Shown here in pieces: positions 1 through 12,912 of a stretch of 13,572 nt of DNA (the stretch's first letter is position 1; each line of letters starts with the position of its first letter). The translations under genes and the position numbers were made by a program. The DNA is taken from the UHGV virus genome UHGV-1746862, one strand, 5' to 3'. The notes beneath the pieces were generated by a model. It was not told the origin of the DNA, made no database searches, and saw nothing but the letters and a program-made list of their open reading frames with translations. Origin of the DNA: a virus.

Positions 1-144
1 CTCTTACTCCCCCTCTCCCCAAAAGTCAAGAGAAAAATTTGTAGCGGATTGAAAAATAATTCTTGATTTGCGTTCTGTTTTGTGGTAGTCGCGCGCACCC
101 GTTTCATTACAATTTTTTTCAAAAAAATATTTTTAAAATTCCTA

Positions 145-223
145 TTGACTCTTTGAGTATGGTTATCTAGTATTTGCATCAGACGGGCAATCAAGCCCAC
201 TTCCTAAACTGGAGAATCTAAAA
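145..223 (+). promoter_or_regulatory. Putative sigma70-like promoter plus conserved translation-initiation region upstream of a micro-ORF
   Basis: TTGACT (145-150), 17-bp spacer, TAGTAT (168-173); A/T tract upstream (113-140); weak stem GGGC/GCCC 185-198; then CCTAAACTGGAGAATCTAAAAATG, the same initiation region as the downstream cassettes. Confidence 0.4.
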
Positions 224-298
224 ATGCTGTACAGTCGCGAATTGATGGTTACAACTAACGTTAACACAAAAGCAAAACGTTTTTACATGCAAATCTGA
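224..298 (+). CDS. Micro-ORF, 24 aa (MLYSRELMVTTNVNTKAKRFYMQI); hypothetical small peptide or decayed gene remnant
   Basis: ATG at 224 placed exactly as in the other cassette-driven genes (GGAG 9 nt upstream); ends TGA 296-298; below the ORF-track length cutoff. Confidence 0.25.
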   Translation: MLYSRELMVTTNVNTKAKRFYMQI

Positions 299-430
299 GG
301 CGTATGGTCCAGAATATCAGAAGCTGACTATTGCAACTATGTAGAAACAGCTATAAACTCTAATTGCTACCTTACAAGAAATACAAGAAAGTACATAAGA
401 CAGACAGCAGTTTATTACTACAATATCTAA

Positions 431-519
431 TAAAGTACTTTACAAGGGGCTTATAGTTCGATAAAGTAAGCCCCAGATAAAGAACTTTACCACTAAATCC
501 TAAATTGGAGAACTTAAAA
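431..519 (+). promoter_or_regulatory. Type A cassette: promoter-like TTTACA-N17-TAAAGT overlapping a GC-clamped stem-loop, plus conserved RBS
   Basis: TTTACA 439-444; TAAAGT 462-467; stem GGGGCTTA 446-453 / TAAGCCCC 467-474; GGAG 507-510; nearly identical to the copy at 2488-2576. Confidence 0.55.
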
Positions 520-813
520 ATGGCTATTATCAAAAACGTTGTAATTACTGCAAAGACTCGTGATGACGCTCGCGTTATGGCTAAAAAGTTATGCGGGAAA
601 GTGGTTGACAATGGAAAACAATCTGCTGTAAGGTGGGGCGTGAAGGTTGATAAACAGTTGAAGTTAAAAAATTCACCGATAAACCTTTTTACATGTGTAA
701 ACACTATCGGGAAGACAAATGTATACACGAAAAAGGCATACATTAGACGCGTAGCATTAACATCCCCCATTCGTACAATGAGAAGTTATGCAAAGCTGAA
801 AATTAACAAATAA
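520..813 (+). CDS. Hypothetical small basic protein (97 aa)
   Basis: ATG at 520 with GGAG at cassette spacing. The ORF track's 505 start is an in-frame TTG inside the RBS and is rejected. Stop TAA 811-813 immediately followed by the next cassette. Confidence 0.7.
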   Translation: MAIIKNVVITAKTRDDARVMAKKLCGKVVDNGKQSAVRWGVKVDKQLKLKNSPINLFTCVNTIGKTNVYTKKAYIRRVALTSPIRTMRSYAKLKINK

Positions 814-900
814 AGTACTTTACAGGGGGCTTAAAAGTTGATATCTTAAGCCCCAGATAAAGAGCTTTACCACTCAATCCTTAAACTAGGAGATTCAAAA
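811..900 (+). promoter_or_regulatory. Type A cassette (variant stem)
   Basis: TTTACA 819-824; TATCTT 842-847; stem GGGGCTTAA 826-834 / TTAAGCCCC 846-854; CTAGGAGATTCAAAA then ATG at 901. Confidence 0.55.
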
Positions 901-1413
901 ATGAAAACTGTAGACGCTACCTTTGAAGTTGTAAAAGAAAAATTCACCATTATTTACGAAGCTGTCAATTGTTATGAAGCAAGCCATAATCTTGATAATT
1001 GGAAGTTTACAGATGACCATCAAGGCGGCGTGACTGTTAAAAATCCTAACTGTCAGCGTAATGAATTTAAATATGCAATCCCTTTACATTACAGCCTTAA
1101 ACAGCTTTCAAGTGACTATGCAAAACAAGGCCGTGAGAATCCATCGAAAGAGGCTTACACGAGCTTACAGAAAGAACTAGAAAGAGATTTAGAGGCTTCA
1201 GAGTATAACCTTGCCGCGAAAGTTGTGGATGCAAACGGTAGCACGGTTTTAGAAAGTTTTTATCTTGGTTATGCTTTCGATTGGTGCTATCGTGACGGCG
1301 ATGATTTAGAGGATAGACTAAAAGAAGAGGTGAACAACGCAGACGCAGAATCTGAAGTATTAGAACGTTTGGAATCGTTGAAAGACTCAGTGATGAATAT
1401 CTTTAAGAACTAA
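901..1413 (+). CDS. Hypothetical acidic protein (170 aa)
   Basis: ORF with cassette RBS; stop TAA 1411-1413 abuts the next cassette; no recognisable motif. Confidence 0.75.
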   Translation: MKTVDATFEVVKEKFTIIYEAVNCYEASHNLDNWKFTDDHQGGVTVKNPNCQRNEFKYAIPLHYSLKQLSSDYAKQGRENPSKEAYTSLQKELERDLEASEYNLAAKVVDANGSTVLESFYLGYAFDWCYRDGDDLEDRLKEEVNNADAESEVLERLESLKDSVMNIFKN

Positions 1414-1505
1414 ATAGATTTCTTTACACGGGGTTATCAGACTGATAAGATAGCCCCAGATAAAGAGCTTTATTCAAATCAACCCTTAAACTAGGAGATT
1501 CTAAA
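1411..1505 (+). promoter_or_regulatory. Type A cassette (divergent stem with compensatory changes)
   Basis: TTTACA 1423-1428; TAAGAT 1446-1451; stem-loop GGGGTTATCAGACTGATAAGATAGCCCC 1430-1456; CTAGGAGATTCTAAA then ATG at 1506. Confidence 0.5.
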
Positions 1506-1802
1506 ATGAAATTATCAAATAAAGTCCGTGAAAATTTAAGCAAGTTACTTAATAAAATTGATTTCATTGAAACATCAAGGAATAGTCATGATGTTATGGA
1601 ATGGTTACACGGAAAAATCAAAGGCCGTCGTGTAGTGATTTGCTTATGGAACAGTTGCAGGGAGTATAAAAAACCTGTATTGCAAGTCAATATTTATGAT
1701 GATACTTTTAAAAGTCCTGTAAAGTCTAAAAGCGATTTATTAGAATCCTATGAGATAACTGTAAATGGCAAAGTATCACGTAAAGAGGAAACACCATGTT
1801 AA
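1506..1802 (+). CDS. Hypothetical protein (98 aa)
   Basis: ORF with cassette RBS; its stop TAA 1800-1802 overlaps the next start (ATGTTAA). Confidence 0.7.
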   Translation: MKLSNKVRENLSKLLNKIDFIETSRNSHDVMEWLHGKIKGRRVVICLWNSCREYKKPVLQVNIYDDTFKSPVKSKSDLLESYEITVNGKVSRKEETPC

Positions 1803-2128
1803 TGACTGGTATCACTGCAATCATTGTCATTTTCGCGCTATATAAGGCATATAAAGCCTATAATCTGGCAAGTAAGGCAATCACACAACAGGTTAATAAT
1901 AACCTTGTAATGAGCTTTCTAGAGCGTTTAAGTGATGAACAATTAAAACGGCTAGAAATGAGCTTTAGATTCAGGGCGAGAACTTATCAAATCAGTGACA
2001 TTTTCAAAGATAATTTTCAATTAGTCGATGATTATAATTCTCTGATAAATGCTTTAAATATTAGTGACTTAAAAGATTATCACGCTGTAATTGTTCAAGA
2101 ATTGAGCAAACGAAAACAAAACTGTTGA
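1796..2128 (+). CDS. Hypothetical small membrane-anchored protein (110 aa), one N-terminal hydrophobic helix
   Basis: Translationally coupled to the upstream gene; GAGGA 7 nt upstream of ATG 1796; residues 3-17 (MTGITAIIVIFALYK) hydrophobic. Confidence 0.65.
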   Translation: MLMTGITAIIVIFALYKAYKAYNLASKAITQQVNNNLVMSFLERLSDEQLKRLEMSFRFRARTYQISDIFKDNFQLVDDYNSLINALNISDLKDYHAVIVQELSKRKQNC

Positions 2129-2217
2129 CACTGATTTTTAGATAGATTAAATTACACATCAACGGGGAGGCAATAACCTCCCTACTAAATAAAGTCCTTA
2201 AACTAGGAGATTCAAAA
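2125..2217 (+). promoter_or_regulatory. Type B cassette: TTGACA-N17-TAAATT promoter, 5'-proximal GGGGAGG/CCTCCC stem-loop, conserved RBS
   Basis: TTGACA 2125-2130 overlaps the upstream stop TGA 2126-2128; TAAATT 2148-2153; stem 2164-2182; CTAGGAGATTCAAAA then ATG at 2218. Confidence 0.6.
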
Positions 2218-2490
2218 ATGTATACTACTAACAACGGTCGTACTTTAAATGTCACTCTACGTCACTATGTTGATGGTGTAATGTGCTTTGATGATTTACA
2301 AGCTGAGCAACACATCTTAGATTGGCAAGTAGCAGGACTCCAAAAAACTGCTACCGGATACGGGAAAAAGATTCCAACTAGCTGGAAAGTACACTATGAA
2401 GGCCGTTTGCGCAGAATTTATCAAGATGTGCAAAGCAATAGCGCATCGAGTTACATTATAGTAAAAGGCAAAAAACTGCATTTAATGTAA
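2218..2490 (+). CDS. Hypothetical protein (90 aa)
   Basis: ORF with cassette RBS; stop TAA 2488-2490 abuts a type A cassette. Confidence 0.7.
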   Translation: MYTTNNGRTLNVTLRHYVDGVMCFDDLQAEQHILDWQVAGLQKTATGYGKKIPTSWKVHYEGRLRRIYQDVQSNSASSYIIVKGKKLHLM

Positions 2491-2576
2491 AGTACTTTAC
2501 AAGGGGCTTATAGTTCGATAAAGTAAGCCCCAGATAAAGAGCTTTACCACTAAATCCTAAATTGGAGAACTTAAAA
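2488..2576 (+). promoter_or_regulatory. Type A cassette, near-identical copy of 431-519
   Basis: TTTACA 2496-2501; stem-loop 2503-2531; same RBS; about 1 mismatch per 100 nt against 431-519, identity extending into the first codons (ATGGCTATTA). Confidence 0.55.
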
Positions 2577-2981
2577 ATGGCTATTAATAACCGTGAATTA
2601 TCAATTTTAAAAGCACGTTTGACCGTTAACCGGATTAATGTTATCACGTCATCAGCACCAGATGAAACACTGCAAAACATTATTGGGAAGATTCAAAGTG
2701 TTATCTTAGACGTTGAAAGCGTAAAAAATTCATTGGCTGACGTTGCAGCAGGTATCACACTAGACGGTGCGCAATATGAAATGTCCGACATGTTAGGCAA
2801 ATCTAAGGTAATGAATAAAGAGTTAGATTTGAAAATGTTCCGATTTGCTGTTAAAGTGTGGCTATCTGTCGAGTATGATGCTAACTTTGCAATCGCTGAC
2901 TTTTTCGCCACTTGGTTGCAGCGTAATTTGACTAATCATGACTTCCGCGATATCTGGGATGCAATTTATGCAGAACTCTAA
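2577..2981 (+). CDS. Hypothetical protein (134 aa)
   Basis: ATG at 2577 with cassette RBS; the track's 2562 start is an in-frame TTG inside the RBS and is rejected. Confidence 0.7.
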   Translation: MAINNRELSILKARLTVNRINVITSSAPDETLQNIIGKIQSVILDVESVKNSLADVAAGITLDGAQYEMSDMLGKSKVMNKELDLKMFRFAVKVWLSVEYDANFAIADFFATWLQRNLTNHDFRDIWDAIYAEL

Positions 2982-2990
2982 AAAATTTTG

Positions 2991-3085
2991 TTGACACTGG
3001 TTTTTAGATAGATTAAATTACACATCAACGGGGAGGGAATGACCTTCCCCACTAAGTAAAGTCCTTAAACTAGGAGATTCAAAAA
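2991..3085 (+). promoter_or_regulatory. Type B cassette
   Basis: TTGACA 2991-2996; TAAATT 3014-3019; stem GGGGAGGG 3030-3037 / CCTTCCCC 3043-3050; CTAGGAGATTCAAAAA then ATG at 3086. Confidence 0.6.
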
Positions 3086-3289
3086 ATGGCTATTATTAAT
3101 GATTTAACCATTGAAACTACACACATCAAAGATATCAAAGTTGGCGATATAGTCCTTTCCCACGGCGTAGAAAAAACTGTCACTGCAAAGGATATCAAAG
3201 AGGATTCTTTCATGGGTAGGACTCTCTTCGGTGATTCTTATTGCTTAGGCTATCTTGCAGTTTTAAAAGTTGTCAAAAATAACAAATAA
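3086..3289 (+). CDS. Hypothetical protein (67 aa)
   Basis: ORF with cassette RBS; starts MAII like the gene at 520. Confidence 0.65.
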   Translation: MAIINDLTIETTHIKDIKVGDIVLSHGVEKTVTAKDIKEDSFMGRTLFGDSYCLGYLAVLKVVKNNK

Positions 3290-3375
3290 AGTACTTTACA
3301 AGGGGCTTAAAAGTTGATAACTTAAGCCCCAGATAAAGAGCTTTACCACTAAATCCTAAACTGGAGATTCTAAAA
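3287..3375 (+). promoter_or_regulatory. Type A cassette (stem variant as in 811-900)
   Basis: TTTACA 3295-3300; stem-loop 3302-3330; CTGGAGATTCTAAAA then ATG at 3376. Confidence 0.55.
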
Positions 3376-3624
3376 ATGATGAACTACTTTAACATTCCCG
3401 ATACCTGTAGATTATTGACACAAGAAGAAAATTTGGGTAAACCTTTCATTTACCACATGCCAGATAACACGGCAAAAACTTATAGTTACAATGTTAACCG
3501 TTTCACCGCATACGCTGCAAAGAACGGCTATAGGTTGGTTACTCAAAAAGTAATGCTGGTTACAACTGCTGGCGAGATTCCTACAGTTGCAGTCAAACTA
3601 GTTTTCTCAAAGAAAGTTAAATAA
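3376..3624 (+). CDS. Hypothetical protein (82 aa)
   Basis: ORF with cassette RBS; stop TAA 3622-3624 abuts the next cassette. Confidence 0.65.
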   Translation: MMNYFNIPDTCRLLTQEENLGKPFIYHMPDNTAKTYSYNVNRFTAYAAKNGYRLVTQKVMLVTTAGEIPTVAVKLVFSKKVK

Positions 3625-3709
3625 AGCACTTTACAAGGGGCTTATAGTTCGATAAAGTAAGCCCCAGATAAAGAGCTTTACCACTAAATCCTAAACTGGA
3701 GATTCAAAA
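3622..3709 (+). promoter_or_regulatory. Type A cassette
   Basis: TTTACA 3630-3635; stem-loop 3637-3665; CTGGAGATTCAAAA then ATG at 3710. Confidence 0.55.
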
Positions 3710-4252
3710 ATGAAATGCTATCACGGAACTACTCAAGAAAATTTCCTCAACCTGATTAATAACGGTGATAAACCATCAGGCGCATGGGATTGTTCGGATA
3801 TGGACGGCAATTTTTACGTGTATCCAGAAAATAAAATCTATGGCGACGATGATGAAGAGATAACATCGGAAGGTATTCAGCAAGCTCTAGGCAATGCCAC
3901 TATCACCGCAGCTTTTCAGATGAAGACTCAAAATATTGTTATCTTAGAACTCGATATTCCAGAGGATGAGCTAAACGATGATTATTCTTGTGATAATATG
4001 TCGAGTGTAGCAAGTTTTACAGAGTACTTTGATGTAAATTGGATTAAAAAGGTCTATACAACAGAGTTTAATGCTATGTATTCACCTTTTTGTCTTCCTT
4101 CATTGGATAACCCAAATTTAAACTATCTTGATGAGTCTCTGGAGCTTCTTGCTAAAAGTGTTCAACAGTCGGACAGTATTCAGGTTTTTTGTGACATCAT
4201 GGATACACTGACAGGAAACATTGCAGAAGAGGATTTAAAGAGCTTTTTCTAA
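3710..4252 (+). CDS. Hypothetical strongly acidic protein (180 aa)
   Basis: ORF with cassette RBS; many Asp/Glu runs (DDDEE, PEDELNDDY); followed by a terminator-like hairpin. Confidence 0.75.
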   Translation: MKCYHGTTQENFLNLINNGDKPSGAWDCSDMDGNFYVYPENKIYGDDDEEITSEGIQQALGNATITAAFQMKTQNIVILELDIPEDELNDDYSCDNMSSVASFTEYFDVNWIKKVYTTEFNAMYSPFCLPSLDNPNLNYLDESLELLAKSVQQSDSIQVFCDIMDTLTGNIAEEDLKSFF

Positions 4253-4284
4253 AAACCTATGCAATCACCTTATAAACACTAATC

Positions 4285-4304
4285 AGCCCCTTGTAGGGGC
4301 TTTT
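4285..4304 (+). terminator. Putative intrinsic terminator (short T-tail)
   Basis: AGCCCC 4285-4290, loop TTGTA, GGGGCT 4296-4301, then TTTT. Confidence 0.45.
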
Positions 4305-4318
4305 AGAGGGCTTAAATC

Positions 4319-4552
4319 ATGCTTACAACCATTTACCTCATCCTTTCCATCTGTAATGGTCATTCATGTGATTTTAAAGGGCTTGAAGAGTTTACAGGAA
4401 GTAAAGAAAATGCTATTCAAGTTTGCCAGATAGCAAGACAAGACTATCCCGCTAGTGATGATATACAATGTTACTTTAAGACAGAAGATGAAGACGGTAT
4501 CTATTTTGACAGCGTAGATGGTCAGTATGAAATTATCATTGAAAAAGACTAG
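4319..4552 (+). CDS. Hypothetical small protein (77 aa) with hydrophobic, Cys-containing N-terminus
   Basis: ATG at 4319 with weak AGAGGG upstream; the only gene of the array without a cassette; N-terminus MLTTIYLILSICNGHSC. Confidence 0.5.
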   Translation: MLTTIYLILSICNGHSCDFKGLEEFTGSKENAIQVCQIARQDYPASDDIQCYFKTEDEDGIYFDSVDGQYEIIIEKD

Positions 4553-4643
4553 ACAAGCCTGATAAAAATCTGTAAATTGTCAATCAACGGGGAGGGAATG
4601 ACCTTCCCCACTAAGTACAATCCTTAAACTAGGAGATTCAAAA
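4550..4643 (+). promoter_or_regulatory. Type B cassette
   Basis: TAGACA 4550-4555 overlaps stop TAG 4550-4552; TAAATT 4573-4578; stem 4589-4609; CTAGGAGATTCAAAA then ATG at 4644. Confidence 0.55.
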
Positions 4644-4985
4644 ATGGCTTATGTAACCGTAATTACCGATAAAGAAAATTCATCTTGGTCAACTCAAGTA
4701 AGTGATAAGATGTCACCTATGCAGTGCCTAAAATACTTTGAACAGTGGAACAAAGGCGAGGACACAAGCCCCTTTCAAGTGATGCAGATTATCCATGTAG
4801 ATAACGAAGGGAATAAAACGGTTTTAAATAGTGAGTACTACGCAAGCCTTTTTGAAACGAGAAGTAAAACAATGAAGCTTTTACGTGAATCCGGTTATGC
4901 CCATATCGCCGCGTTAATCTGGGATGACCTGCTAAAAAACCAACGTATCAGCTATGTAAAACCTGAAAAAATATTCATCAGTTAA
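4644..4985 (+). CDS. Hypothetical protein (113 aa)
   Basis: ORF with cassette RBS. Confidence 0.7.
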   Translation: MAYVTVITDKENSSWSTQVSDKMSPMQCLKYFEQWNKGEDTSPFQVMQIIHVDNEGNKTVLNSEYYASLFETRSKTMKLLRESGYAHIAALIWDDLLKNQRISYVKPEKIFIS

Positions 4986-5018
4986 TCAATAACTTACAAA
5001 AAACTTTTAAAAAAAATG

Positions 5019-5047
5019 TTGACAATACCCCTTGACATTGGTAACTT
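5019..5047 (+). promoter_or_regulatory. Additional promoter-like element with tandem TTGACA hexamers and upstream A-tract
   Basis: A-run 5004-5016; TTGACA 5019-5024 and again 5032-5037; TAACTT 5042-5047 at 17-bp spacing from the first hexamer. Confidence 0.35.
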
Positions 5048-5115
5048 TGTTCGAGGGGGTTTATCTAAAAGGGATTCACTTAAAAGATTCTTTATAGATA
5101 AGCTCAAAAAATTAC

Positions 5116-5208
5116 TTGCAATCAGCTATCAAAACAAGTAAATTACTAATCAACGGGGAGGGAATGACCTTCCCCACTAAGTAAAATCCTTAAACTAGGA
5201 GAGTCAAA
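5116..5208 (+). promoter_or_regulatory. Type B cassette
   Basis: TTGCAA 5116-5121; TAAATT 5139-5144; stem GGGGAGGG 5155-5162 / CCTTCCCC 5168-5175; CTAGGAGAGTCAAA then ATG at 5209. Confidence 0.55.
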
Positions 5209-5739
5209 ATGAACAAGTTTAAAGCTATCAACTTCATTCGTTCAAATGCTGTAATGTCTAAGCCTGTAAAAGATACATATGAATTTCGTTGTAATGGGGT
5301 ACACTTTGCAACCATCACTAAGTCAGAAAACGGGGCTTATTATGTACATCGTCGTAATGTTGCAACCGTTGTAGTCTCTCACTTTATGCAAGCTGTAGCG
5401 GAATTATTACCGTTATTCTTAGAGATTTACTTAGATGAGTGTAAAAACGTTCACAACCACGTTAAAAACCTTTTAAACGGTTATAAAATGGCTTATGAAC
5501 GTTCTATCAAGTCACTAAACAAGTTTTACAATGCACCTGCAAATACTGTTTCAATGGCTTATGATGTAAACGGTGAGTTAGTTAGTCTCTTTAAAGTGGA
5601 AGAAATTAAACTGTATAATCTACGTCCTAGTGGTTACTCTAAGACTCTTGGTGAAGGTTTAACGTTCAATATCAAGAACTTAGAAAAAACTTTAAAAGAT
5701 ATTGAAAAAGATATTGACGAGACACTTAAAAGTCTGTAA
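5209..5739 (+). CDS. Hypothetical protein (176 aa)
   Basis: ORF with cassette RBS; its last codons and stop contain the promoter of the next cassette. Confidence 0.75.
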   Translation: MNKFKAINFIRSNAVMSKPVKDTYEFRCNGVHFATITKSENGAYYVHRRNVATVVVSHFMQAVAELLPLFLEIYLDECKNVHNHVKNLLNGYKMAYERSIKSLNKFYNAPANTVSMAYDVNGELVSLFKVEEIKLYNLRPSGYSKTLGEGLTFNIKNLEKTLKDIEKDIDETLKSL

Positions 5740-5806
5740 ATTGTCAATCAACGGGGAGGCGATAACCTCCCCACTAAATAAAACCCTTAAACTAGGAGAT
5801 TCAAAA
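5714..5806 (+). promoter_or_regulatory. Type B cassette, promoter embedded in the 3' end of the upstream gene
   Basis: TTGACG 5714-5719; TAAATT 5737-5742 overlaps stop TAA 5737-5739; stem GGGGAGG 5753-5759 / CCTCCCC 5766-5772; CTAGGAGATTCAAAA then ATG at 5807. Confidence 0.55.
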
Positions 5807-6055
5807 ATGGCAACTATCCGCGCTACTGTTAACGAGTTCGGTTTTTCCTCTCTGGATGTTAAATTTGACATTGCAGGCACTGATAACGCCTTTGAAATGG
5901 TGAAATGTCTTATCAGTCAGACCATCAAAGATTATAATCCTTCGGATGAGTTCTGGGAGGAAACAAAACAAGAAGTTCTCAAGGATGGTTATACTTATCA
6001 CTATTGGGGAGAAAAAATCGTCTCCCTGTACTACAACAAACAAGATTATAACTAA
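5807..6055 (+). CDS. Hypothetical protein (82 aa)
   Basis: ATG at 5807 with cassette RBS; the track's 5702 start is an in-frame extension running through the cassette and is rejected. Confidence 0.7.
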   Translation: MATIRATVNEFGFSSLDVKFDIAGTDNAFEMVKCLISQTIKDYNPSDEFWEETKQEVLKDGYTYHYWGEKIVSLYYNKQDYN

Positions 6056-6065
6056 TCGACGCAGC

Positions 6066-6117
6066 GGGGCTAAATAGCCCCAGATACCTGAACAGCCCCT
6101 TAAAATGGGGCTTTTTT
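6066..6117 (+). terminator. Two consecutive GC stem-loops, the second a canonical intrinsic terminator closing the rightward array
   Basis: GGGGCT-AAAT-AGCCCC 6066-6081; AGCCCC-TTAAAAT-GGGGCT 6094-6112 followed by TTTTT 6113-6117. Confidence 0.6.
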
Positions 6118-6560
6118 ACGTCTATGTAATAGCCTCTATTCAATCCTTTTCCTTTCCTTTCCAGAATCTATCCCACTGATTCAATAGAATCTTATCAGAC
6201 CTTAAAAGCAATAACTCTATAGTCTACTCTATAACCTCTTATCAAATCAACTTAAATAAAAGCCAATAACCCCAGAAAGGGGATGGCCCATTTAAACGCT
6301 CTATAAAGCTCTATAACAGCCTTATCAACCTAACTTAAGGGATTGCATTACCTCACCCTAAAAAGCCCTTTATAAAGCTTCCCAGAGACTTAAAAGAATC
6401 TTATAAGGGTGTAAGCTTTATCATCTCATTAGTATTCTTGTGAATATCTAAACAACCCCTTGATAGTCACTAAAAAGTATGTTATAGGGGCTTTAAAGTT
6501 ACTTTGAAGTAGCTTAAAAGTTACGTAAAAGAGGCTATAAAGTTACGTAAATGCTAGCCC

Positions 6561-6661
6561 CCTTAACATTCTCTTAACAATTTCTTAACAATCCCTACAT
6601 AGTTATGCTTTTAAGGCACTTGTTAGCAACTTGTTAGTCCCTTGTTAAATCTCTGTTAAGA
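6561..6661. repeat. Head-to-head sub-array: three CTTAACA sites, then four TGTTA(G/A) sites in the opposite orientation, each set at exact 11-bp spacing
   Basis: TAACA cores start at 6564, 6575, 6586; TGTTA cores start at 6621, 6632, 6643, 6654. Confidence 0.7.
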
Positions 6662-6863
6662 CCACGTAAAAGCCTTGTAAGAGTCTTTGACATAGCCTTA
6701 AAAGCTCCTGTAAAGCCCTATAAAGAGCTATCTGTACAGTTGGGGGATAGATACTAGGAAGAGACTTAAAAGAGCTTACAAAGAGCTATAGAGAGCTTTT
6801 AAGAGGGCTATTTAGAGAATCACTAAGAGAGAAAGGGAACGATAAGACCAGAGATAGTGACCA

Positions 6864-7140
6864 TGTTAATAGCTTGTTAAAAAGATTAAACACTTGTTAG
6901 AAACTTGTTAATTATCTTAACAAAATAACTCTTTAAAATTAACTTGTTAGCTCTTGTTAATCATCTGTTAAGACTCTGTAAAGACTATTCAGCACTTGTT
7001 AGAAAACTGTTACAGCCTTGTTAGTTCTGTTAAGAAACTGTTAAGACCTTTGAAGAGTTGTTAAGAAGGTGTTAGAACTGTTAAGAGATTGTTAAGGATA
7101 TTTTAAAATTTTGCAAAGTACTTGTAAGGGAGCTGTTAAG
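6864..7140 (+). repeat. Tandem array of about 17 TGTTA(A)G-family sites, mostly phased at 9-11 bp
   Basis: TGTTA cores start at 6864, 6875, 6895, 6906, 6945, 6955, 6966, 6997, 7008, 7019, 7028, 7039, 7059, 7070, 7079, 7090, 7134; one inverted copy (CTTAACA) at 6916-6922. Confidence 0.7.
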
Positions 7141-7429
7141 GGCTACCAAGCAGATATACATCCTAATCAGATATTTTTGAGTTCCTTCAAAGACCCTAAA
7201 AAATGACTTGACAGTCCTATTTTATAAAAATTTTAAGATTCTGAATAATTACCTATACAGCCTTTTAAAAATACAGGTAATAACAGGCTTATAAGATACC
7301 TTGTTAGTACCGTGTTAGACCTTGTGAGATAAGGCCTGTAAAGATATTCCTGTTAAGTTTATTAAAACAGTCTATATAGAGGCTTAGTAATACCTAGTGA
7401 ACACCTATAGAGAGTATCATAGCTGACAT

Positions 7430-7635
7430 AGAGATTAAGAGGTGTATAGGAGCTTCTAAGAAGGTGTAGAGGGATGGTTAAGGTGATTGTATAGGTTGTT
7501 AAGAAGGCTTGTTAGAGGGCTTGTTAGAAGGGTTATACAGAGGGGCTATTAAGACCACTAGATAGTTACTAAGATACTATATAGTACTATATAACTATAT
7601 AGAGAGTAAGATTAAGAAGGTTGTTAAGAAGGATA
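7430..7635 (+). repeat. Cluster of longer motif variants ((C)TTGTTA(A)GAAGG, AAGGTGTAGAGG)
   Basis: TTGTTAAGAAGG at 7496-7507 and 7621-7632; CTTGTTAGAGGG at 7508-7519; CTTGTTAGAAGGG at 7520-7532; related GGTGTATAGG / AAGGTGTAGAGGG at 7440-7473. Confidence 0.55.
7575..7602. repeat. TATA-rich palindromic cluster
   Basis: Perfect 12-bp palindrome TACTATATAGTA at 7575-7586; three CTATATA(G) copies at 7577, 7587 and 7595. Confidence 0.6.
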
Positions 7636-7690
7636 GATATTTTGTTCACATATGATGGTGACCCAGAGGTTGGGACAACCGATAAAATTT

Positions 7691-7723
7691 TATAAAAGTA
7701 AAAAGCCCCCAATTAAGGAGGCT
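7691..7723 (-). terminator. Putative intrinsic terminator closing the leftward gene cluster
   Basis: On the minus strand, AGCCUCC-UUAAUU-GGGGGCU (7 bp stem with one G-U pair) followed by UUUUACUUUUAUA, just past stop TAA 7735-7737. Confidence 0.55.
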
Positions 7724-7734
7724 CTTAAGATATT

Positions 7735-8358
7735 TTAAATCAGTGTTTCCAGAACTGTTTTTAATGATGACTTGGTTGTCTGATAAAAATGAGTAAATCC
7801 ATTATTGTTATCGAATATCTGCATCATAACAGCATCTCCCTTGATTGGGTACACTCGGATATCATAGTGAAAACCATTAAAGACACAAGAGCCATTACAG
7901 AATGCACTAAAGTCATCCACTGAGATATACTCTTCATGCCCTGTGATTTTTATACAAACACCTTTACTCGGTCTCTTAGGGTTGATATCTTCCATCACAG
8001 ACATACTCTGCCCACCAAGAGATACCATAGTGACCACTTTACGGTTCTTCTGTTTAAAGTACATCTTAACTTTCTGTAAAGTGTCTTCATAGAACGGGTA
8101 AGACCTTTCTACAAAGATTCCTTCAAGTGGCTCTTTACCATTTTCAACTTCTCTGTTATGCCGTACTGCAAAGATAATTTGTTCGAACCAGTCAAGATTT
8201 TCTTCGGAGAGTGCTTCTCGAACATCACTCCAGTCAAGTACTAGGTAGTTACCTTCAACTTCTTTTAAGTTATCTTTTTCCATAGATATCACACCATTAT
8301 CGTAAAACTTGATATTCTGGTACTGCGAATTTATTACTATTGTTCTTGATGAGGTCAT
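7735..8358 (-). CDS. Hypothetical protein (207 aa; possibly starts at the internal ATG 8283, giving 182 aa)
   Basis: Long ORF; the first 62 nt overlap the upstream gene in another frame; no clear SD before ATG 8358. Confidence 0.65.
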   Translation of the reverse strand: MTSSRTIVINSQYQNIKFYDNGVISMEKDNLKEVEGNYLVLDWSDVREALSEENLDWFEQIIFAVRHNREVENGKEPLEGIFVERSYPFYEDTLQKVKMYFKQKNRKVVTMVSLGGQSMSVMEDINPKRPSKGVCIKITGHEEYISVDDFSAFCNGSCVFNGFHYDIRVYPIKGDAVMMQIFDNNNGFTHFYQTTKSSLKTVLETLI

Positions 8359-8761
8359 CCTCTGAAACTAAAAATGTAATACCACATAAGTGTCTGTAAC
8401 GACTATCATACTCGAATATCTTAAACAGATATTTACCATCATGATAAACCTGTTGCACTTCACCTTCTGCAACAATCTCGCCTGTAATAAAATTTTTTAG
8501 TTTATACACATTACCAACCTTAGGTACTGTTTTCATCTCAGGCTCTTTTAGTGCTACACCTATTTTTACATCACCGAGTAAATGAGAACTCTCAAAAGCT
8601 ACGTGTTTCATATAGGCTTCTGAGCATTCCCAAATAAAACAATGTACAAGAACCTTAGCAGCATGTCTTGAGCAGTTCAACTTATCACAAATTTCTGTGT
8701 ACATCTCATCTTTAGTAGAATTGTCAAGCATTGCTCTTTGCACTACTTCTTTAATTTTCAT
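8297..8761 (-). CDS. Hypothetical protein (154 aa)
   Basis: ORF in the leftward cluster, overlapping the upstream gene by 11 nt. Confidence 0.7.
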   Translation of the reverse strand: MKIKEVVQRAMLDNSTKDEMYTEICDKLNCSRHAAKVLVHCFIWECSEAYMKHVAFESSHLLGDVKIGVALKEPEMKTVPKVGNVYKLKNFITGEIVAEGEVQQVYHDGKYLFKIFEYDSRYRHLCGITFLVSEDDLIKNNSNKFAVPEYQVLR

Positions 8762-9173
8762 AAGCTCTCCGAATAACCCTATTAAGCATCTCTAAAGTCA
8801 GCTTTCCAGATTCTAAATGTGGCATGATGAGTTTTAAAGCTTTTTCAACATCATTCACAACATCTATTATACCTTCTTCATAGGCTTCTACGAGGATATC
8901 TTTTACACCGATATAGCCTTCATTGATAATGATTTGCATATCAAAATCTTTTGATTGCTTGTTTAACTTACCTCTCCAATACCCATCAGCATTAAAAGAT
9001 ATCACTTCACACTCTTTAAAATCCATATCATCTGCATTGAATGGAGTAATTATTGTGCATTGGATTGGGTACTCTACACCAGTGGTGTCAACATCAAAAA
9101 CCTTCACAGAAGTGAGTGGTTTCTTTGTTTTAGAGCAGTAAACTGTCAATCTTTTACCAATAAGCTCTTTCAT
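8751..9173 (-). CDS. Hypothetical protein (140 aa)
   Basis: ORF with GAAGG-type RBS upstream of ATG 9173. Confidence 0.7.
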   Translation of the reverse strand: MKELIGKRLTVYCSKTKKPLTSVKVFDVDTTGVEYPIQCTIITPFNADDMDFKECEVISFNADGYWRGKLNKQSKDFDMQIIINEGYIGVKDILVEAYEEGIIDVVNDVEKALKLIMPHLESGKLTLEMLNRVIRRAYEN

Positions 9174-9226
9174 TTCGCTACCTTCTAAGTTTCTACAAAG
9201 GGGCTATCAAGTAACCCCTCAAGCTA

Positions 9227-9451
9227 CTACTCAGACTTTTCAGTCTTCTTATCGGATTTCTTACTAGTCTTCTTCTCAGCTTTCTGTTCAGGCTCCTTCT
9301 CAGAAGTTGCCTTGATAACCATATCAAGAAGCTCTGATAAGTCACTCTTCAGCAAAGTAACAGGCTGCTCGTTGTAGAAGTTTTTGTCAAGATAAACTTT
9401 GAACTCTTCTATAGAAGGAAATCCAAAAATTGGTACAGGTGTCTTAATCAT
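9227..9451 (-). CDS. Hypothetical small protein (74 aa) with Lys/Glu-rich C-terminal tail
   Basis: ORF with GGAGAG 8 nt upstream of ATG 9451; C-terminus EKEPEQKAEKKTSKKSDKKTEKSE. Confidence 0.6.
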   Translation of the reverse strand: MIKTPVPIFGFPSIEEFKVYLDKNFYNEQPVTLLKSDLSELLDMVIKATSEKEPEQKAEKKTSKKSDKKTEKSE

Positions 9452-9527
9452 TACTTAGTCTCTCCATAGGCATCTTTTAAGATTGCCTTGTTAATCATTT
9501 CAGCGATTGCAAAACGAACACATACAG

Positions 9528-10061
9528 CTATAATTGTAGGTTGCATTCTCTACTTACCTCTTCAAGTTTAACCTCAGAATCCTTAAGTCGTTTCTTATGA
9601 ACTCTGAACCTCATTAGTGAGATGATGATACCAGCTAAAGGAACAGCATACAAGTACCAAACATCATGTGCCTTTGCAGTAATCTGTGTAATGGTCAAGT
9701 CTTGAGCTATGTAGCTGATTGCTGATACGGCTAGTAATGTTGCTAAGAAGAAAACCAGTATCATAACAATATTCAGACAACCTCTGGCATGGTATTCATG
9801 CTTAATGCACTTATTCTTCTCTTCAACAACCCTGTTGTAGTCATTTGTAAAGTCTCTGTAGAAAGCTTTTAAGTATTCTTGAGTGTAGCCTTCAAAGCAA
9901 CCTGTGCCGTACCAATAATCACCACCAAAATGTGCTATGATACCTGTATCCCCATTTGGTTTGGTTACTCTTAGTGAAGTATGATGACCAGTCTTCTGAT
10001 AATCTATCTTGTATCTTTCTTCGTAAATCATTTCCCAACCCCTCTCAATCGTTTGTTCCAC
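9528..10061 (-). CDS. Hypothetical membrane protein (177 aa), soluble N-terminal part then two predicted TM helices and a charged C-terminus
   Basis: Hydrophobic segments IVMILVFFLATLLAVSAISYI and VWYLYAVPLAGIIISLM; alternative coupled start at 10031 (ATGA overlap with the upstream stop). Confidence 0.7.
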   Translation of the reverse strand: MEQTIERGWEMIYEERYKIDYQKTGHHTSLRVTKPNGDTGIIAHFGGDYWYGTGCFEGYTQEYLKAFYRDFTNDYNRVVEEKNKCIKHEYHARGCLNIVMILVFFLATLLAVSAISYIAQDLTITQITAKAHDVWYLYAVPLAGIIISLMRFRVHKKRLKDSEVKLEEVSRECNLQL

Positions 10062-10246
10062 TCAAGGTCAACAAGTCTTTGCAGGACTTTCCCTCTAGGT
10101 GTTACACCTTTTAAATCTGCATCGTAGCAACGGTAAAAGTCACCTTCAGCGTGTTTACCGTAGCATTTTCTGATATTCTGGCTCCTACGATACTGCTCTA
10201 ACAGGGAGAGTCTGTAGTAATCTTCAACTGTAGTTAACTTTTTCAT
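10028..10246 (-). CDS. Hypothetical small basic protein (72 aa)
   Basis: ORF with ATGA overlap to the upstream gene (10243-10246). Confidence 0.55.
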   Translation of the reverse strand: MKKLTTVEDYYRLSLLEQYRRSQNIRKCYGKHAEGDFYRCYDADLKGVTPRGKVLQRLVDLEWNKRLRGVGK

Positions 10247-10788
10247 TCTTTCACCATAGCGTTTCTGAACTGGCGTTGTGTTTCTCTTGTAATTTCGTTT
10301 GGAGTAAACCCTGCTTTTAGCATATCTCTGAAAAGAACTTCTAAATGGTTCCTCTCAATGATGTAAATAGCATTCTGAATAGCTGTTTTGCGCTCCTTCA
10401 GGTCACTACTAATCTCTTCGCACTTACTGGTAAGTTCTGTATCAACTTTCTTATAGACTGGCATAACATGTGCGTAGCAACCTTTATTAGTCTCCATGAA
10501 AAATTTAAAAGACTCTTCAGAGTCCTTTAGAGCAATCCCTATAAAGTTTTTGTAAGCACCTGTGAAAGATAAGGAATCAATCTCAGCAGTTGAGTATACA
10601 GTTCCTGCACACAGTCTTGCAGAAGTACTGAATGTGTGGTTTGGTGTTGTGTCAAAGTCTAAGTTCTTCAGTGGTCGGAAATAAACTGTACCATTGTGTG
10701 AGATGTGTGTTACAACAGCCTCAACACTCTTTGAAGGATTCTGTTTAACATACAAAATAATTTTATCGTGTTCTTTCACTTTAGCCAT
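10243..10788 (-). CDS. Hypothetical protein (181 aa)
   Basis: ORF with GGAGAG RBS upstream of ATG 10788. Confidence 0.7.
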   Translation of the reverse strand: MAKVKEHDKIILYVKQNPSKSVEAVVTHISHNGTVYFRPLKNLDFDTTPNHTFSTSARLCAGTVYSTAEIDSLSFTGAYKNFIGIALKDSEESFKFFMETNKGCYAHVMPVYKKVDTELTSKCEEISSDLKERKTAIQNAIYIIERNHLEVLFRDMLKAGFTPNEITRETQRQFRNAMVKE

Positions 10789-10802
10789 ATCTACTCTCCA
10801 GA

Positions 10803-10835
10803 AACTAAAAAGGGAACTACCTCTCGATAGCTCCC
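10803..10835 (-). terminator. Putative internal intrinsic terminator in the leftward cluster
   Basis: On the minus strand, GGGAGCU-loop-AGUUCCC (10812-10835) followed by UUUUUAG (10805-10811), which runs directly into the RBS of the gene starting at 10788. Confidence 0.45.
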
Positions 10836-10860
10836 ATCATAATCAATATTGTATACTCGG

Positions 10861-11442
10861 TCAAGAGTATTTTTTAGGCAGCAATGCACTGCGCTTGTTA
10901 CTCTCTTCACTCAATAGTGCAATGAAATCATCACTTTTACCTTTCCACGGGCTGAATGAAGGGATATGTTCGCGGATAGCCTCAATCACTGTTTTAAGTG
11001 CTGTGTTCTTCATCCACCAATCAGAATCTGCTGATGCTACCACGTAGTATCCACCGTCATCAGTTAAAATTGGCTCTGAAATACATGGTGAAATCAAAGT
11101 GGTGATGATTGAACCGTTGTTCATGTAGTATGTGCGCTTCATAACCTTTTCAAGAAGCTTGTGAAGGTCACCAAACAATGTTACAAGTTCTTTATGGTCA
11201 ATATCTTTTTCGAGACTAGCTCGATACTTCAAAAGTGCAGCATCAACTTCTCTGTCATTAAACTTGAAGTACTGGACTTCATCAACAAGGCAGACACTAA
11301 TGTTATTAACATTCATAGTCAGCTTGCAAACTTTTGCAGGAGAGTTGATATTTGGTTGAAAAAGTGCAATACACCCTTCAATATTTCCAAAATGTTGTAC
11401 CAGTGTTACTTGTGGAGTGATATTCTGTTGCTCTTCGGACAT
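10861..11442 (-). CDS. Hypothetical protein (193 aa)
   Basis: ORF; start overlaps the upstream stop (TAATG, shared nt 11442). Confidence 0.7.
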   Translation of the reverse strand: MSEEQQNITPQVTLVQHFGNIEGCIALFQPNINSPAKVCKLTMNVNNISVCLVDEVQYFKFNDREVDAALLKYRASLEKDIDHKELVTLFGDLHKLLEKVMKRTYYMNNGSIITTLISPCISEPILTDDGGYYVVASADSDWWMKNTALKTVIEAIREHIPSFSPWKGKSDDFIALLSEESNKRSALLPKKYS

Positions 11443-12861: not shown

Positions 12862-12876
12862 AGTTTTCTCCTTAGA

Positions 12877-12902: not shown

Positions 12903-12912
12903 TATGAAGATA

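Follow-up and report, generated by a model that had tools for sequence, protein, structure and literature searches.

A phage of the Felix O1 type carries a 6-kb block of small genes in which nearly every gene is preceded by a repeated unit of about 90 nt, made up of a host-type promoter, a G/C hairpin and a standard ribosome-binding site (RBS). What are these units, and how could they shape the expression and evolution of the genes that they precede? The block studied here lies in a window of 13,572 nt (the whole stretch of DNA that was analysed), which database comparison assigns to a Felixounavirus (Ounavirinae) with 93.8% identity to phage KhF1. Its 14 ORFs, all on the + strand, define 13 junctions, 11 of which hold a cassette. 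The two others are the overlapping ORF pair 1796-1802 and the junction 4253-4318, the only long one without a cassette, where a different hairpin, AGCCCCTTGTAGGGGCT followed by TTTT (4283..4303, + strand), separates two genes that always travel together. The cargo of the cassettes consists of small proteins to which no function could be assigned. In the Felix O1 genome paper, the cassette sequences were entered merely as direct repeats.

Two families of cassettes

The initial annotation had sorted eleven intergenic spacers into two families, and the repeat search and alignments found all of them at exactly these coordinates, with the modules described (the type B positions being the first base of the -35 hexamer). 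The cassettes are thus a confirmed feature of the window, and a chance origin of the two families is excluded because they recur 178 (type A) and 129 (type B) times in related genomes. The repeat search recovered five type A copies of a 99-nt repeat at 431, 811, 2488, 3287 and 3622 (74-99% identity), a divergent sixth copy, at 1411, being detected via sub-families of 26 and 33 nt. Type B gave five copies of 80-107 nt, at 2112/2148, 2978/3015, 4537/4574, 5103/5140 and 5737.

All cassettes are on the + strand. The type A cassette 431..522 comprises the TAA stop of the upstream gene (431), a -35 TTTACA (439-444), a -10 TAAAGT (462-467), an inner stem (446-474), a 3' box (475-489), a Shine-Dalgarno motif (SD, 506-510) and the ATG (520). 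The copy 2488..2579 is 99% identical to it (-35 2496-2501, -10 2519-2524, stem 2503-2531, box 2532-2546, ATG 2577). The copy 811..903 has its TAA at 811, -35 at 819-824, a TG-extended -10 TATCTT at 842-847, inner stem at 825-854, box at 855-869, SD at 888-892 and ATG at 901. The two cassettes 3287..3378 (-35 3295-3300, -10 TAACTT 3318-3323, stem 3302-3330, box 3331-3345, ATG 3376) and 3622..3712 (-35 3630-3635, -10 3653-3658, stem 3637-3665, box 3666-3680, ATG 3710) form the left and right borders of a variable 249-nt gene, absent from most relatives. In the divergent copy 1411..1508 (TAA 1411, -35 1423-1428, -10 TAAGAT 1446-1451, stem GGGGTTATC/GATAGCCCC 1430-1457, box 1458-1472, SD 1493-1497, ATG 1506), the stem and outer arms are unlike those of the other type A copies, yet pairing is kept. 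The initial annotation had the type A modules right, the 3' box included; it missed that CTTTACA holds the -35 of a promoter-like TTTACA-N17-TAnnnT whose -10 lies in the hairpin loop, and that the box is an arm of a longer hairpin.

In type B, the stem lies downstream of the promoter-like hexamers. The cassette 2125..2220 comprises TTGACA (2125-2130, with the upstream gene's TGA stop inside), TAAATT (2148-2153), ATCAAC, a stem (2164-2183), SD (2205-2209) and ATG (2218). The others are 2991..3088 (TTGACA 2991-2996, TAAATT 3014-3019, stem 3030-3050, SD 3072-3076, ATG 3086), 4550..4646 (TAGACA 4550-4555 with the upstream TAG stop inside, TAAATT 4573-4578, stem 4589-4609, SD 4631-4635, ATG 4644), 5116..5211 (TTGCAA 5116-5121, TAAATT 5139-5144, stem 5155-5175, SD 5197-5201, ATG 5209) and 5714..5809. 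In this last one, the -35 TTGACG (5714-5719) and the spacer are within the upstream gene, whose TAA stop provides the first bases of the -10 TAAATT (5737-5742); the stem follows at 5753-5772, the SD at 5794-5798 and the ATG at 5807. Thus, of the pattern TTGACA-N17-TAAATT given initially, the spacing and TAAATT hold throughout, and a perfect TTGACA occurs at 2125 and 2991 only. In the same way, the initiation region is indeed shared, in two versions of the RBS module rather than one, CCTTAAACTAGGAGATTC and CCTAAA(C/T)TGGAGA.

A degenerate twelfth cassette, B-like and the first of the array, lies at 145..226 (+ strand), upstream of the range initially annotated. It has TTGACT (145-150), a 17-nt spacer, TAGTAT (168-173), a stem GGGC (184-187)/GCCC (195-198), the same RBS as other cassettes (TGGAG, about 210-214) and an ATG at 224; the homologous position of KhF1 holds a full type B cassette. 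An orphan promoter-like site, TTGACA-17-TAACTT (5019..5061, + strand), sits inside a CCCC..GGGG hairpin (dG -18, z -3.1) with neither standard RBS nor gene and is possibly a decayed cassette. The array ends at 6066..6118 (+ strand) with a type-A-like stem remnant, GGGGCTAAATAGCCCCAGATA (6066-6086), then a canonical intrinsic terminator (6094-6112 plus T run) that corresponds, by position and not by alignment, to t23 after ORF23 in Table 2 of the Felix O1 paper.

Promoter signature

Conservation was scored over distinct copies from relatives, 134 of type A and 114 of type B. In type A, TTTACA is kept in 133-134 of the 134 copies and a 17-nt spacer in 133; the first T and A of the -10 are present in all, its final T in 128 and a G at -14 in 124, while the three middle positions of the -10 and the adjoining loop bases are unconstrained. 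In type B, the T and G of the -35 (112/112) and the T, A and T of TAAATT (114/114) are invariant, and the spacer is always 17 nt, with an unconstrained sequence even where it is coding. The conserved positions of both families are those required by a sigma-70 promoter. On the other side, a generic promoter scan of the region showed no overall enrichment (33 sites vs 25.7 +/- 5.4 in shuffles), and the type A -10 hexamers match TATAAT at just 3-4 of 6 positions.

The cassettes are probably composite regulatory units of the promoter-early stem-loop (PeSL) type, which combine a promoter, a hairpin and a leader. The unmodified host sigma-70 RNA polymerase would read each promoter, that is TTTACA-17-TAnnnT with a G at -14 in type A and a TTGACA-like hexamer-17-TAAATT in type B. 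We infer that each cassette has its own promoter; the standard leader, with its SD (A/TGGAG) 7-9 nt ahead of the ATG, may direct the strong initiation proposed initially. Each gene or gene pair would thereby form a small, insulated unit, expressed early. The initial view of every small gene as autonomous is mostly right and slightly overstated, as the two gene pairs 1506-2128 and 3710-4552 have one cassette each per pair. In Felix O1, RT-PCR places ORFs 16, 20, 21 and 22 of the block in the 5-min class and ORFs 17, 19 and 23 in the 25-min class (PMC3185647). The first group fits early expression and the second speaks against it, and this timing class is unrelated to cassette type.

Hairpins and their possible effects on the transcripts

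The type A hairpin overlies the promoter. The box AGATAAAGAGCTTTA pairs with the stop-codon/-35 region, which gives a hairpin of about 20 bp (dG -24 to -25 kcal/mol, z -4.1 to -4.7). In model-fitted alignments of related sequences, stem pairing is kept in 98.8% of cells, against 32-54% with the 3' partners slid, and five stem pairs with changes on both sides are compensatory. In Erwinia phage phiEa104 the design is retained, the stems being GGTG..CACC and the outer arm AAAAGT/GCTTTT. Alignments of this model-fitted kind gave 219 G.U cells against 13 A.C cells, three columns supplying most of the G.U cells. This asymmetry and the folding energies of the type B stems, which favour the + strand (-13.0 vs -10.3 kcal/mol), both suggest that the G/C-rich hairpins work in + strand RNA.

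Because the 5' arm of type A takes in the -35 and spacer as well as the stop codon of the upstream gene, with the -10 in the loop and the invariant box as 3' arm, the full hairpin would form solely in transcripts from upstream, whose 3' end it may mark or attenuate. For the cassette's own transcript, the predicted start is near the A of AGATAAAG. The type B hairpin, 2-4 nt 3' of the predicted start, could serve the upstream message as a 3' hairpin and the cassette's own message as a protective 5' hairpin. No U tract follows the type A or the type B hairpin, which makes classical intrinsic termination doubtful.

These features could also be read as RNA punctuation only: one long early RNA would start at the first promoter (145-173), the hairpins would be processing or stability sites cutting it into monocistronic mRNAs, and the promoter-like hexamers would be incidental. 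In its favour, the longer hairpin of type A is both strong and conserved, with a 3' arm that scarcely varies, the wobble asymmetry indicates + strand RNA and the complete hairpin is possible in read-through RNA only. Furthermore, a helix of about 20 bp that is interrupted by internal loops is reminiscent of the sites for RNase III found between T7 early genes. This explanation is nevertheless unlikely. It does not account for the fixed unpaired T and A of the loop (134/134) and the G at -14 amid varying neighbours, for the exact 17-nt distance of TTTACA in every copy or for the persistence of TTG-17-TAnnnT in type B, where the surrounding sequence is unconstrained or coding. Both readings can hold together, and RNA processing may well come on top of the promoter function.

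Type B stems are marked as Rho-independent terminators on the opposite strand in the KhF1 GenBank record; this annotation and their G/C richness speak for such a role, which is nevertheless hardly credible: the stems have no T run behind them on either strand (CCTCCCCACTAAATAAAG on +, GGGGAGG..CCCCGTTGATGTG on -), they are not picked up by a terminator scan, the genes here are all on the + strand and true T-run terminators bound the array (6094-6118).

Distribution and plasticity

KhF1 carries seven type A and seven type B cassettes, all inside about 7 kb, and neither family was found in the other 72.6 kb of its genome. In the phage collection, 288 records have type A and 244 type B; all listed matches of both cassette searches are Ounavirinae phages, the organism tallies including a few otherwise-named records (one 'Staphylococcus' in both, and for type A also one 'Campylobacter' and two more). 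The cassettes are conserved across three genera.

In comparisons with KhF1, MBP4696116, Felix O1, nataliec and finno, homology breaks internally at 26 points, each of them 7 nt or less from a cassette. The flanks overlap there by one cassette, the overlaps ranging from a 32-nt RBS module up to a whole 97-nt cassette, and 29 of the 30 best database matches begin inside a cassette or at most 9 nt away. Where two genes have no cassette between them, the pair is gained or lost as one. Michonne has the opposite cassette type in front of its homologues of genes 3376 and 4644, a tandem duplicate of one unit and one empty cassette. The cassettes ahead of the 170-aa gene and of the 180-aa gene are 100% identical to each other within KhF1 and likewise within nataliec, with orthologues in other genomes reaching 87-93% identity only; cassette copies inside one genome are thus homogenised. 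Within the genus, gene order is kept, and plasticity is mostly presence or absence rather than free shuffling. The block is the plastic part of the genome, with indels and cassette swaps exactly at cassettes, and other genera place the same genes after the opposite cassette type. This bears out the hyperplastic region proposed initially; the 'host takeover' role proposed with it lacks support, none of the cargo having an assignable function. Within the reach of sequence analysis, the initial interpretation as a whole is supported.

Being long direct repeats of similar sequence, the cassettes would let general homologous recombination delete, duplicate, insert and convert units, and such unit-wise recombination would make the block hyperplastic. 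It could also be proposed that the cassettes are sites for proteins that bind DNA, namely the palindrome TAAAGTACTTTA, which covers the -35, and a near-repeat of it, TAAAGAGCTTTA, 47 bp further downstream, either as operators for a phage repressor shutting off type A promoters or as targets of a dedicated, integron-like recombinase that moves the units. Of the 14 copies of TAAAGnnCTTTA in the KhF1 genome, 13 are in cassettes, paired 47 nt apart, and the boxes are the most invariant part of the cassette; the PeSL authors, too, speculated on a stem-binding recombination protein. The near-invariance of AGATAAAGAGCTTTA and TAAAGTACTTTA, beyond what pairing alone demands, could reflect a bound protein. 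However, the box is absent from type B cassettes, which are equally plastic, 120 of 133 copies have a G.U at one outer-arm pair, where a DNA palindrome would be mismatched, crossovers are spread over overlaps of 32 to 97 nt and no candidate recombinase or repressor was identified, so that this proposal is quite improbable. Selfish, non-functional MITE-like repeats spreading through intergenic DNA would also be multi-copy and similar, with inverted repeats, but their constant orientation and register to stop and start codons, confinement to one block, three-genus conservation, promoter-typical position-specific constraint and compensated stems make this origin extremely unlikely.

Comparison with known systems

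Like the cassette units, lambdoid morons and integron cassettes are single genes with their own expression signals, added or removed as units. Morons, however, lack conserved flanking repeats, and integrons rely on attC sites, an integrase and one common promoter, whereas the repeat here is itself the promoter and RBS and no recombinase is evident.

The T7 early region has three host promoters, then RNase III sites between genes. It shares with the present block an early set of small non-essential genes, the host polymerase, a conserved hairpin between cistrons and, for type A, a helix of about 20 bp with internal loops. It differs in that its promoters are at the block start only and not ahead of every gene; the hairpins of the present phage overlap promoter elements, and RNase III cleavage is only putative here.

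The closest likeness is to PeSL cassettes of the T4-like phages RB49/phi1, PST/T4 and nt-1/KVP40 (Arbiol et al. 2010, PMC2839356; Comeau et al. 2014, PMC4122927), for which promoter and terminator activity and recombination were demonstrated, with mini-circles in RB49/phi1. The initial annotation proposed this likeness, and against the two papers it fits feature by feature. Both are repeated intergenic units of about 100 bp, from the upstream stop codon through SD and ATG, with an AT-rich stretch, sigma-70-like -35 and -10 hexamers, a 17-nt spacer and a polyG..polyC stem-loop. Type A corresponds to the PeSL subclass whose stem lies between the two hexamers or overlaps the -10, and type B to the subclass whose stem follows the -10; the -35 consensus TTTACW of T4/PST is that of type A. 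Both have their units gathered in a hyperplastic stretch of ORFans, with the indels and replacements that separate close relatives ending in cassettes, and both include decayed half-cassettes. The differences are the lineage, Ounavirinae and not T4-like, a single block per genome instead of several hyperplastic regions, and the extra outer helix of type A, formed by two TAAAGnnCTTTA boxes and taking in the stop codon and the -35. Promoter and terminator activity and mini-circles, demonstrated in RB49/phi1, are putative here. Searches with both cassettes listed Ounavirinae only, with no T4-like phage and no similarity to PeSL sequences. Judged by their sequence features, the cassettes match the published definition of PeSLs in another phage lineage, without sequence homology.

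Genomic Context and Cassette Inventory

A megablast search of the window against 50,697 phage records matched 263 of them. Almost all bear the names of Escherichia, Salmonella, Shigella or Citrobacter phages of the Felix O1 type, and the best matches are KhF1 and KhF2 (93.8% identity over 429-13568). The window thus belongs to the genus Felixounavirus (Ounavirinae). Its positions 1-6055 are the end of a rightward transcription unit, approximately ORFs 14-23 of Felix O1, with 14 + strand ORFs preceded by Shine-Dalgarno (SD) sequences (224-298, 520-813, 901-1413, 1506-1802, 1796-2128, 2218-2490, 2577-2981, 3086-3289, 3376-3624, 3710-4252, 4319-4552, 4644-4985, 5209-5739 and 5807-6055). Positions 7735-13572 carry tightly packed - strand genes, a lysin gene among them.

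A repeat search returns both cassette families of the initial annotation at exactly the positions where it had placed them (type A at 431, 811, 1411, 2488, 3287 and 3622; type B at 2125, 2991, 4550, 5116 and 5714), and alignments show the modules that it had described. A degenerate B-like copy at 145-226 (+ strand; TTGACT-17-TAGTAT, a 4-bp GGGC/GCCC stem and the same RBS) brings the number of copies to 12, each of 82-98 nt; the homologous position of KhF1 holds a complete type B cassette. A cassette is present at 11 of the 13 junctions between + strand ORFs, the two others being an overlapping gene pair and 4253-4318, where a different hairpin is followed by TTTT. The array ends with a canonical terminator at 6094-6118 (+ strand). 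The feature is real, and its initial interpretation as repeated promoter, stem-loop and RBS units is supported. An Rfam scan of the whole window found no family. Generic promoter and terminator scans are uninformative alone: the promoter scan gave 33 sites for 25.7 expected and missed the copies with only 3/6 matches to the -10.

Just before the closing terminator, 6066-6086 (GGGGCTAAATAGCCCCAGATA) consists of a shortened type A stem and the start of the A box. In the relative MBP4696116, a deletion joins the B cassette at 5116 to this point (window 5155 to 6038). The long spacer before this same cassette holds, at 5019-5061, an orphan TTGACA-17-TAACTT inside a CCCC..GGGG hairpin, without the standard RBS. 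This site is overlapped by a 41-aa ORF (5016-5141), whose counterpart in phage nataliec is annotated as a 38-aa gene but is probably not a real gene.

Beyond the array, about 1.6 kb (6120-7700) lie between two convergent terminators without any credible ORF. This stretch is dense in an 8-mer family, CT(T/G)(T/A)(T/A)A(A/G)G (CTTGTTAG, CTGTTAAG, CTTAAAAG and others), which has 63 matches in the window for 13.4 expected, about half of them here. An 11-nt phasing of the 8-mers is frequent, and inverted copies lie at 6561-6600. Relatives conserve the stretch, and the Erwinia phage phiEa104 has a comparable gap without genes. The stretch resembles an iteron or protein-binding array, perhaps an origin, a packaging site or a partition site.

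Cargo Genes

All 13 full-length proteins encoded by the small genes behind the cassettes (cargo genes) match only PHROGs of ‘unknown function’. No match reached a curated cut-off for the ten cargo proteins scanned against Pfam or for the ten scanned against PADLOC. A PDB sequence search found no relative for the three largest, and AlphaFold could not usefully model the 180-aa protein from its single sequence (pLDDT 37). As these searches yielded no function, the role in host takeover that the initial annotation had evoked for this region is unsupported.

The ORF that follows the first cassette (224-298) encodes only 24 aa and is followed by 130 nt of non-coding DNA. It is a truncated remnant, since its homologue encodes 68 aa (MLYSRELMV...) in KhF1, MBP4696116, Felix O1, nataliec, finno and the Citrobacter phage Michonne. 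The 62-aa gene that precedes the 68-aa gene in KhF1 is absent from the window. Furthermore, three unrelated cargo genes open with the same ten bases, ATGGCTATTA (Met-Ala-Ile; 520-529, 2577-2586 and 3086-3095). The homology between cassettes therefore extends a few codons into the genes, as a result of conversion tracts or of selection acting on the initiation region.

Architecture of the Two Cassette Types

In type A, the first triplet is the TAA of the upstream gene in 6/6 copies, and A+T makes up 65-85% of the 20 nt that precede the -35. The -35, TTTACA, is supplied by the CTTTACA motif and is followed 17 nt further by TAnnnT (TAAAGT, TATCTT, TAAGAT or TAACTT), itself preceded by (T/C)GA. 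TAnnnT lies at exactly 17 nt from the -35 in every copy. The -10 thus falls within the GGGGCTTA..TAAGCCCC stem-loop, in its loop and 3' arm; this stem spans both the promoter spacer and the -10. The box AGATAAAGAGCTTTACC, which the initial annotation had listed as a further module, is according to folding an arm of a longer hairpin and no separate module. In this hairpin, TAAAGAGCTTTA pairs with TAAAGTACTTTA, a perfect 12-nt palindrome in which the stop codon and a portion of the -35 lie. The resulting extended hairpin has about 20 bp and two internal loops, with a dG of -24 to -25 kcal/mol (z -4.1 to -4.7); none of 200 shuffles folds as well.

Type B follows another order: promoter (TTGACA-like, 17 nt, TAAATT), ATCAAC, stem, leader and RBS. 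The promoter often lies partly or wholly within the upstream coding sequence, the upstream stop codon being inside the -35 at 2125 and 4550 and forming the first three bases of the -10 at 5737. The TTGACA proposed for all copies is perfect in only two of them. The stem, GGGGAGG(G)..(C)CCTCCCC, comes after the -10 and has 7-8 bp (dG -12 to -14 kcal/mol). Both types end with an SD and ATG. Here the same RBS module does recur, as had been noted, but in two versions rather than one. A weak TCC(T)-SD pairing of 3-4 bp is predicted in all copies.

Constraints on Promoter and Hairpin

Covariance models of both types were searched over the window, the whole KhF1 genome (three stretches), other GenBank relatives and 43 IMG/VR stretches containing the A box. 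The models retrieved 178 copies of type A and 129 of type B, and conservation was counted on 134 and 114 distinct copies, respectively. In type A, the -35 is TTTACA in 133-134 of the 134 copies and the spacer has 17 nt in 133. The first two bases of the -10 (T, A) are kept in 134/134 and its last T in 128/134, while its three middle bases vary freely; a G is found at -14 in 124. In type B, the T and G of the -35 are invariant (112/112) and its ACA is kept at 66-77%; the T, A and T of TAAATT are found in 114/114 copies and ATCAAC in 112-114 of 114, on either side of a 17-nt spacer of unconstrained sequence. Thus, TTG is more constrained than ACA in the -35, positions -12, -11 and -7 more than the others in the -10, and the spacer is fixed in length and free in sequence. 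Such a position-specific pattern is the information profile expected of a sigma-70 promoter.

This pattern bears on the alternative according to which the cassettes are RNA punctuation only, i.e., one long transcript cut by RNase III-like processing. That alternative accounts for the hairpin, and such processing may be an additional function; however, it leaves the promoter-type constraint unexplained, as a hairpin alone would not yield it.

The hairpin has its own signature. In the type A alignment, 98.8% of 2663 cells are paired, against 32-54% when partners are slid by 1-3 columns. Both partners have changed in five pairs (67 cells), and the covariation score exceeds that of every shuffle. 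Since the alignment is model-fitted and the sequences are related, this test lends support but is not conclusive. A second, independent line of support is provided by a different genus, in which phiEa104 (Kolesnikvirus) keeps the design with GGTGTTTATA..TATAAGCACC stems, a compensation from G-C to U-A; in one of its copies, the outer arm AAAAGT/GCTTTT replaces TAAAGT/GCTTTA. Type A has 219 G.U cells for 13 A.C cells, most of the G.U cells coming from three columns, and the folding energy of type B stems is lower on the + strand (-13.0 kcal/mol) than on the - strand (-10.3 kcal/mol); the energies of the type A hairpin are equal on both strands. The G.U excess and the + strand stability of type B therefore favour an RNA structure of the + strand over a DNA palindrome.

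The TAAAGnnCTTTA boxes of type A could also bind a protein. In KhF1, 13 of their 14 occurrences are in cassettes, where they are paired 47 nt apart and nearly invariant. However, type B is devoid of these boxes, one type A arm pair is mostly G.U and crossovers occur at various points of the cassette. Type A, in which two nearly invariant TAAAGnnCTTTA boxes flank a compensated G/C stem, might be more than a passive stretch of homology and form a specific recognition structure, either an RNase III-type site or the target of a dedicated protein, but this seems unlikely. If it were an RNase III-type site, every cistron would become an independent mRNA; if a dedicated phage protein (repressor or recombinase) were involved, the block would be an integron-like platform for gene capture common to three genera. 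A genome-wide operator role of TAAAGnnCTTTA was rejected, the cassettes themselves accounting for 13 of the 14 KhF1 sites.

In the GenBank record of KhF1 (KT184313.1), the type B stems are annotated as rho-independent terminators antisense to the genes (3060-3080, 3925-3945, 5483-5503 and 6642-6662 of stretch L001), an annotation that is unsupported, since neither strand has a T run after the stems. In the same way, a scan of the window for intrinsic terminators (a G/C hairpin directly followed by a T run) hits no cassette stem; its sites are 6094-6118 on the + strand and 7706-7726, 4285-4301, 6269-6284 and 4759-4772 on the - strand.

Gene Turnover at Cassettes

Breakpoints were located by blastn of positions 1-6200 of the window against five Felixounavirus genomes, the whole comparison covering seven relatives. 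All 26 internal block ends fall within 7 nt of a cassette, and the blocks are colinear, adjacent ones overlapping by one cassette. Furthermore, among the best 30 of the 263 database matches, 29 start in cassettes or at most 9 nt from them.

That cassettes flank different cargo among relatives, a check suggested by the initial annotation, is borne out by gain and loss of genes within the genus and by swaps of cassette type in Michonne. For example, the gene 3376-3624 lies between the A cassettes at 3287 and 3622, and in its place MBP4696116, nataliec and finno have a single cassette. Two stretches are missing from Felix O1: 520-813, where the junction is in an A cassette, and the entire 3086-4552, where it is in a B cassette corresponding on its left to the copy at 2991 and on its right to that at 4550. 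KhF1 and finno each have one extra gene between two B cassettes near 5740-5800, and an extra 127-aa gene lies between two A cassettes in KhF1, MBP4696116, nataliec and finno. In finno, a 52-aa gene is flanked by a duplicated RBS module. The two gene pairs that have no internal cassette are always jointly present or absent. Within the genus, the cassette type is constant for each gene.

In Michonne, the homologue of 3376-3624 is behind a cassette of B architecture and that of 4644-4985 behind a type A cassette, and the homologue of the 62-aa first gene of KhF1 is located far downstream. A cassette-plus-gene unit is present there as a perfect tandem duplicate (stretch L056, 6968-7750) encoding two 85-aa proteins, with 86/86 translated positions identical, stop included. 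Michonne also carries an ‘empty’ type A cassette, whose ATG is fused straight to the next CTTTACA, the sole case among 56 loci. Six of the cargo families are also found in phiEa104, where their order is partly different.

In KhF1, the cassette preceding the 170-aa gene and that preceding the 180-aa gene are 100% identical, and the same holds independently for nataliec, whereas the orthologous cassettes are only 87-93% identical across genomes. This higher identity within than between genomes is a signature of gene conversion between copies. Recombination between direct repeats of 85-105 nt is proposed as the cause of the unit-wise indels, duplication, swaps and homogenisation.

Distribution

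The covariance models found seven type A and seven type B copies in the complete KhF1 genome, all on one strand at 81.3-88.0 kb, and none in the remaining 72.6 kb. The cassettes are thus concentrated among ORFans, in a single block of about 7 kb. In the phage collection, 288 records match type A and 244 match type B, at up to 10 places per genome. Among the matches listed, all are Ounavirinae, i.e., Felixounavirus, Mooglevirus and, for type A only, Kolesnikvirus; the organism tallies also hold a few records under other names (one ‘Staphylococcus’ record with each type and, for type A, one ‘Campylobacter’ record and two others).

A bacterial origin of the cassettes was rejected, as the A box occurs in only four MAG contigs among 185,579 bacterial and archaeal species genomes. 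These contigs, one of which is 64.9 kb long, are labelled Dehalococcoidales or Oscillospiraceae and are most likely mis-binned phages.

Proposed Mode of Action

The best-supported reading is that each cassette joins a promoter for the host polymerase, an RNA hairpin and a standard translation-initiation region, with functional steps that we infer from sequence. In type A, transcription is predicted to start at the A of AGATAAAG, 7-8 nt past the -10, so that the cassette's own mRNA would have an unstructured A/U-rich leader of 45 nt. The full hairpin would form only in RNA coming from upstream, from the stop codon on; there it might weaken read-through, hinder 3' exonucleases or serve as a cleavage site. 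In type B, the predicted start lies within ATCAAC, which would place the stem 2-4 nt from the 5' end. A stem near the 5' end protects E. coli mRNAs such as ompA from RNase E. The type B stem might additionally end the upstream message.

RT-PCR on Felix O1 placed ORFs 16, 20, 21 and 22 in a 5-min class and ORFs 17, 19 and 23 in a 25-min class (PMC3185647). These classes are compatible with early expression, although the data are crude and bear no relation to cassette type.

For Salmonella and E. coli, Felix O1-type phages have found wide use in typing, biocontrol and therapy. For this practically important genus, the cassettes provide a concrete, testable map of about a dozen predicted early promoters and transcript boundaries. 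They are also a natural set of compact, standardised promoter/RBS parts and could mark sites where foreign genes can be inserted with the least disruption.

Comparison with Known Systems

Two parts of the cassettes, the 57-bp core of type A and the 39-bp promoter of type B, appear in the genome paper of Felix O1 as direct repeats only and are absent from its predicted promoters; how transcription passes the many terminators, and how it is temporally regulated, was said not to be known. The literature search found no interpretation of these repeats and no Felixounavirus transcript map, nor any reporter or transcript-end data for an Ounavirinae phage. The wV8 paper does not mention the repeats, and the PhageMaP study of Bas63 goes no further than to describe mosaic regions with small hypothetical genes.

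The resemblance to the promoter-early stem-loop (PeSL) cassettes of T4-like phages, which the initial annotation had evoked, holds on closer comparison. PeSLs are elements of about 100 bp that start from the stop codon of the upstream gene, in AT-rich sequence, and comprise two sigma-70 hexamers separated by 17 nt, a polyG..polyC stem for which five positions are described, an SD and an ATG; they are clustered among ORFans in hyperplastic regions, with indels at cassettes, and reporters have proven their promoter and terminator activity, while recombination of neighbouring cassettes yields excised mini-circles (PMC2839356, PMC4122927). All the features that can be compared in sequence are found here, namely the repeat unit, the hexamers, the stem, the span from stop to ATG, the ORFan block and the indel endpoints. 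Even the -35 consensus of T4/PST, TTTACW, is that of type A.

However, the window belongs to Felixounavirus and PeSLs to T4-like phages, and there is no sequence similarity, T4-like phages being absent among the matches listed for both cassettes in the phage collection. Furthermore, no U tract follows the stems here, and the promoter and terminator activities proven for PeSLs are here predicted. The different lineage and the lack of similarity therefore point to analogy, i.e., the same design, rather than homology. The Felixounavirus cassettes would thus be the same kind of device as PeSLs in another phage group and not their homologues, which extends to an unrelated group of virulent phages a modular shuffling hitherto described only in T4-like phages. 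This supports the view that shuffling by cassettes is not peculiar to the latter and is a general route for the turnover of small accessory genes in virulent phages.
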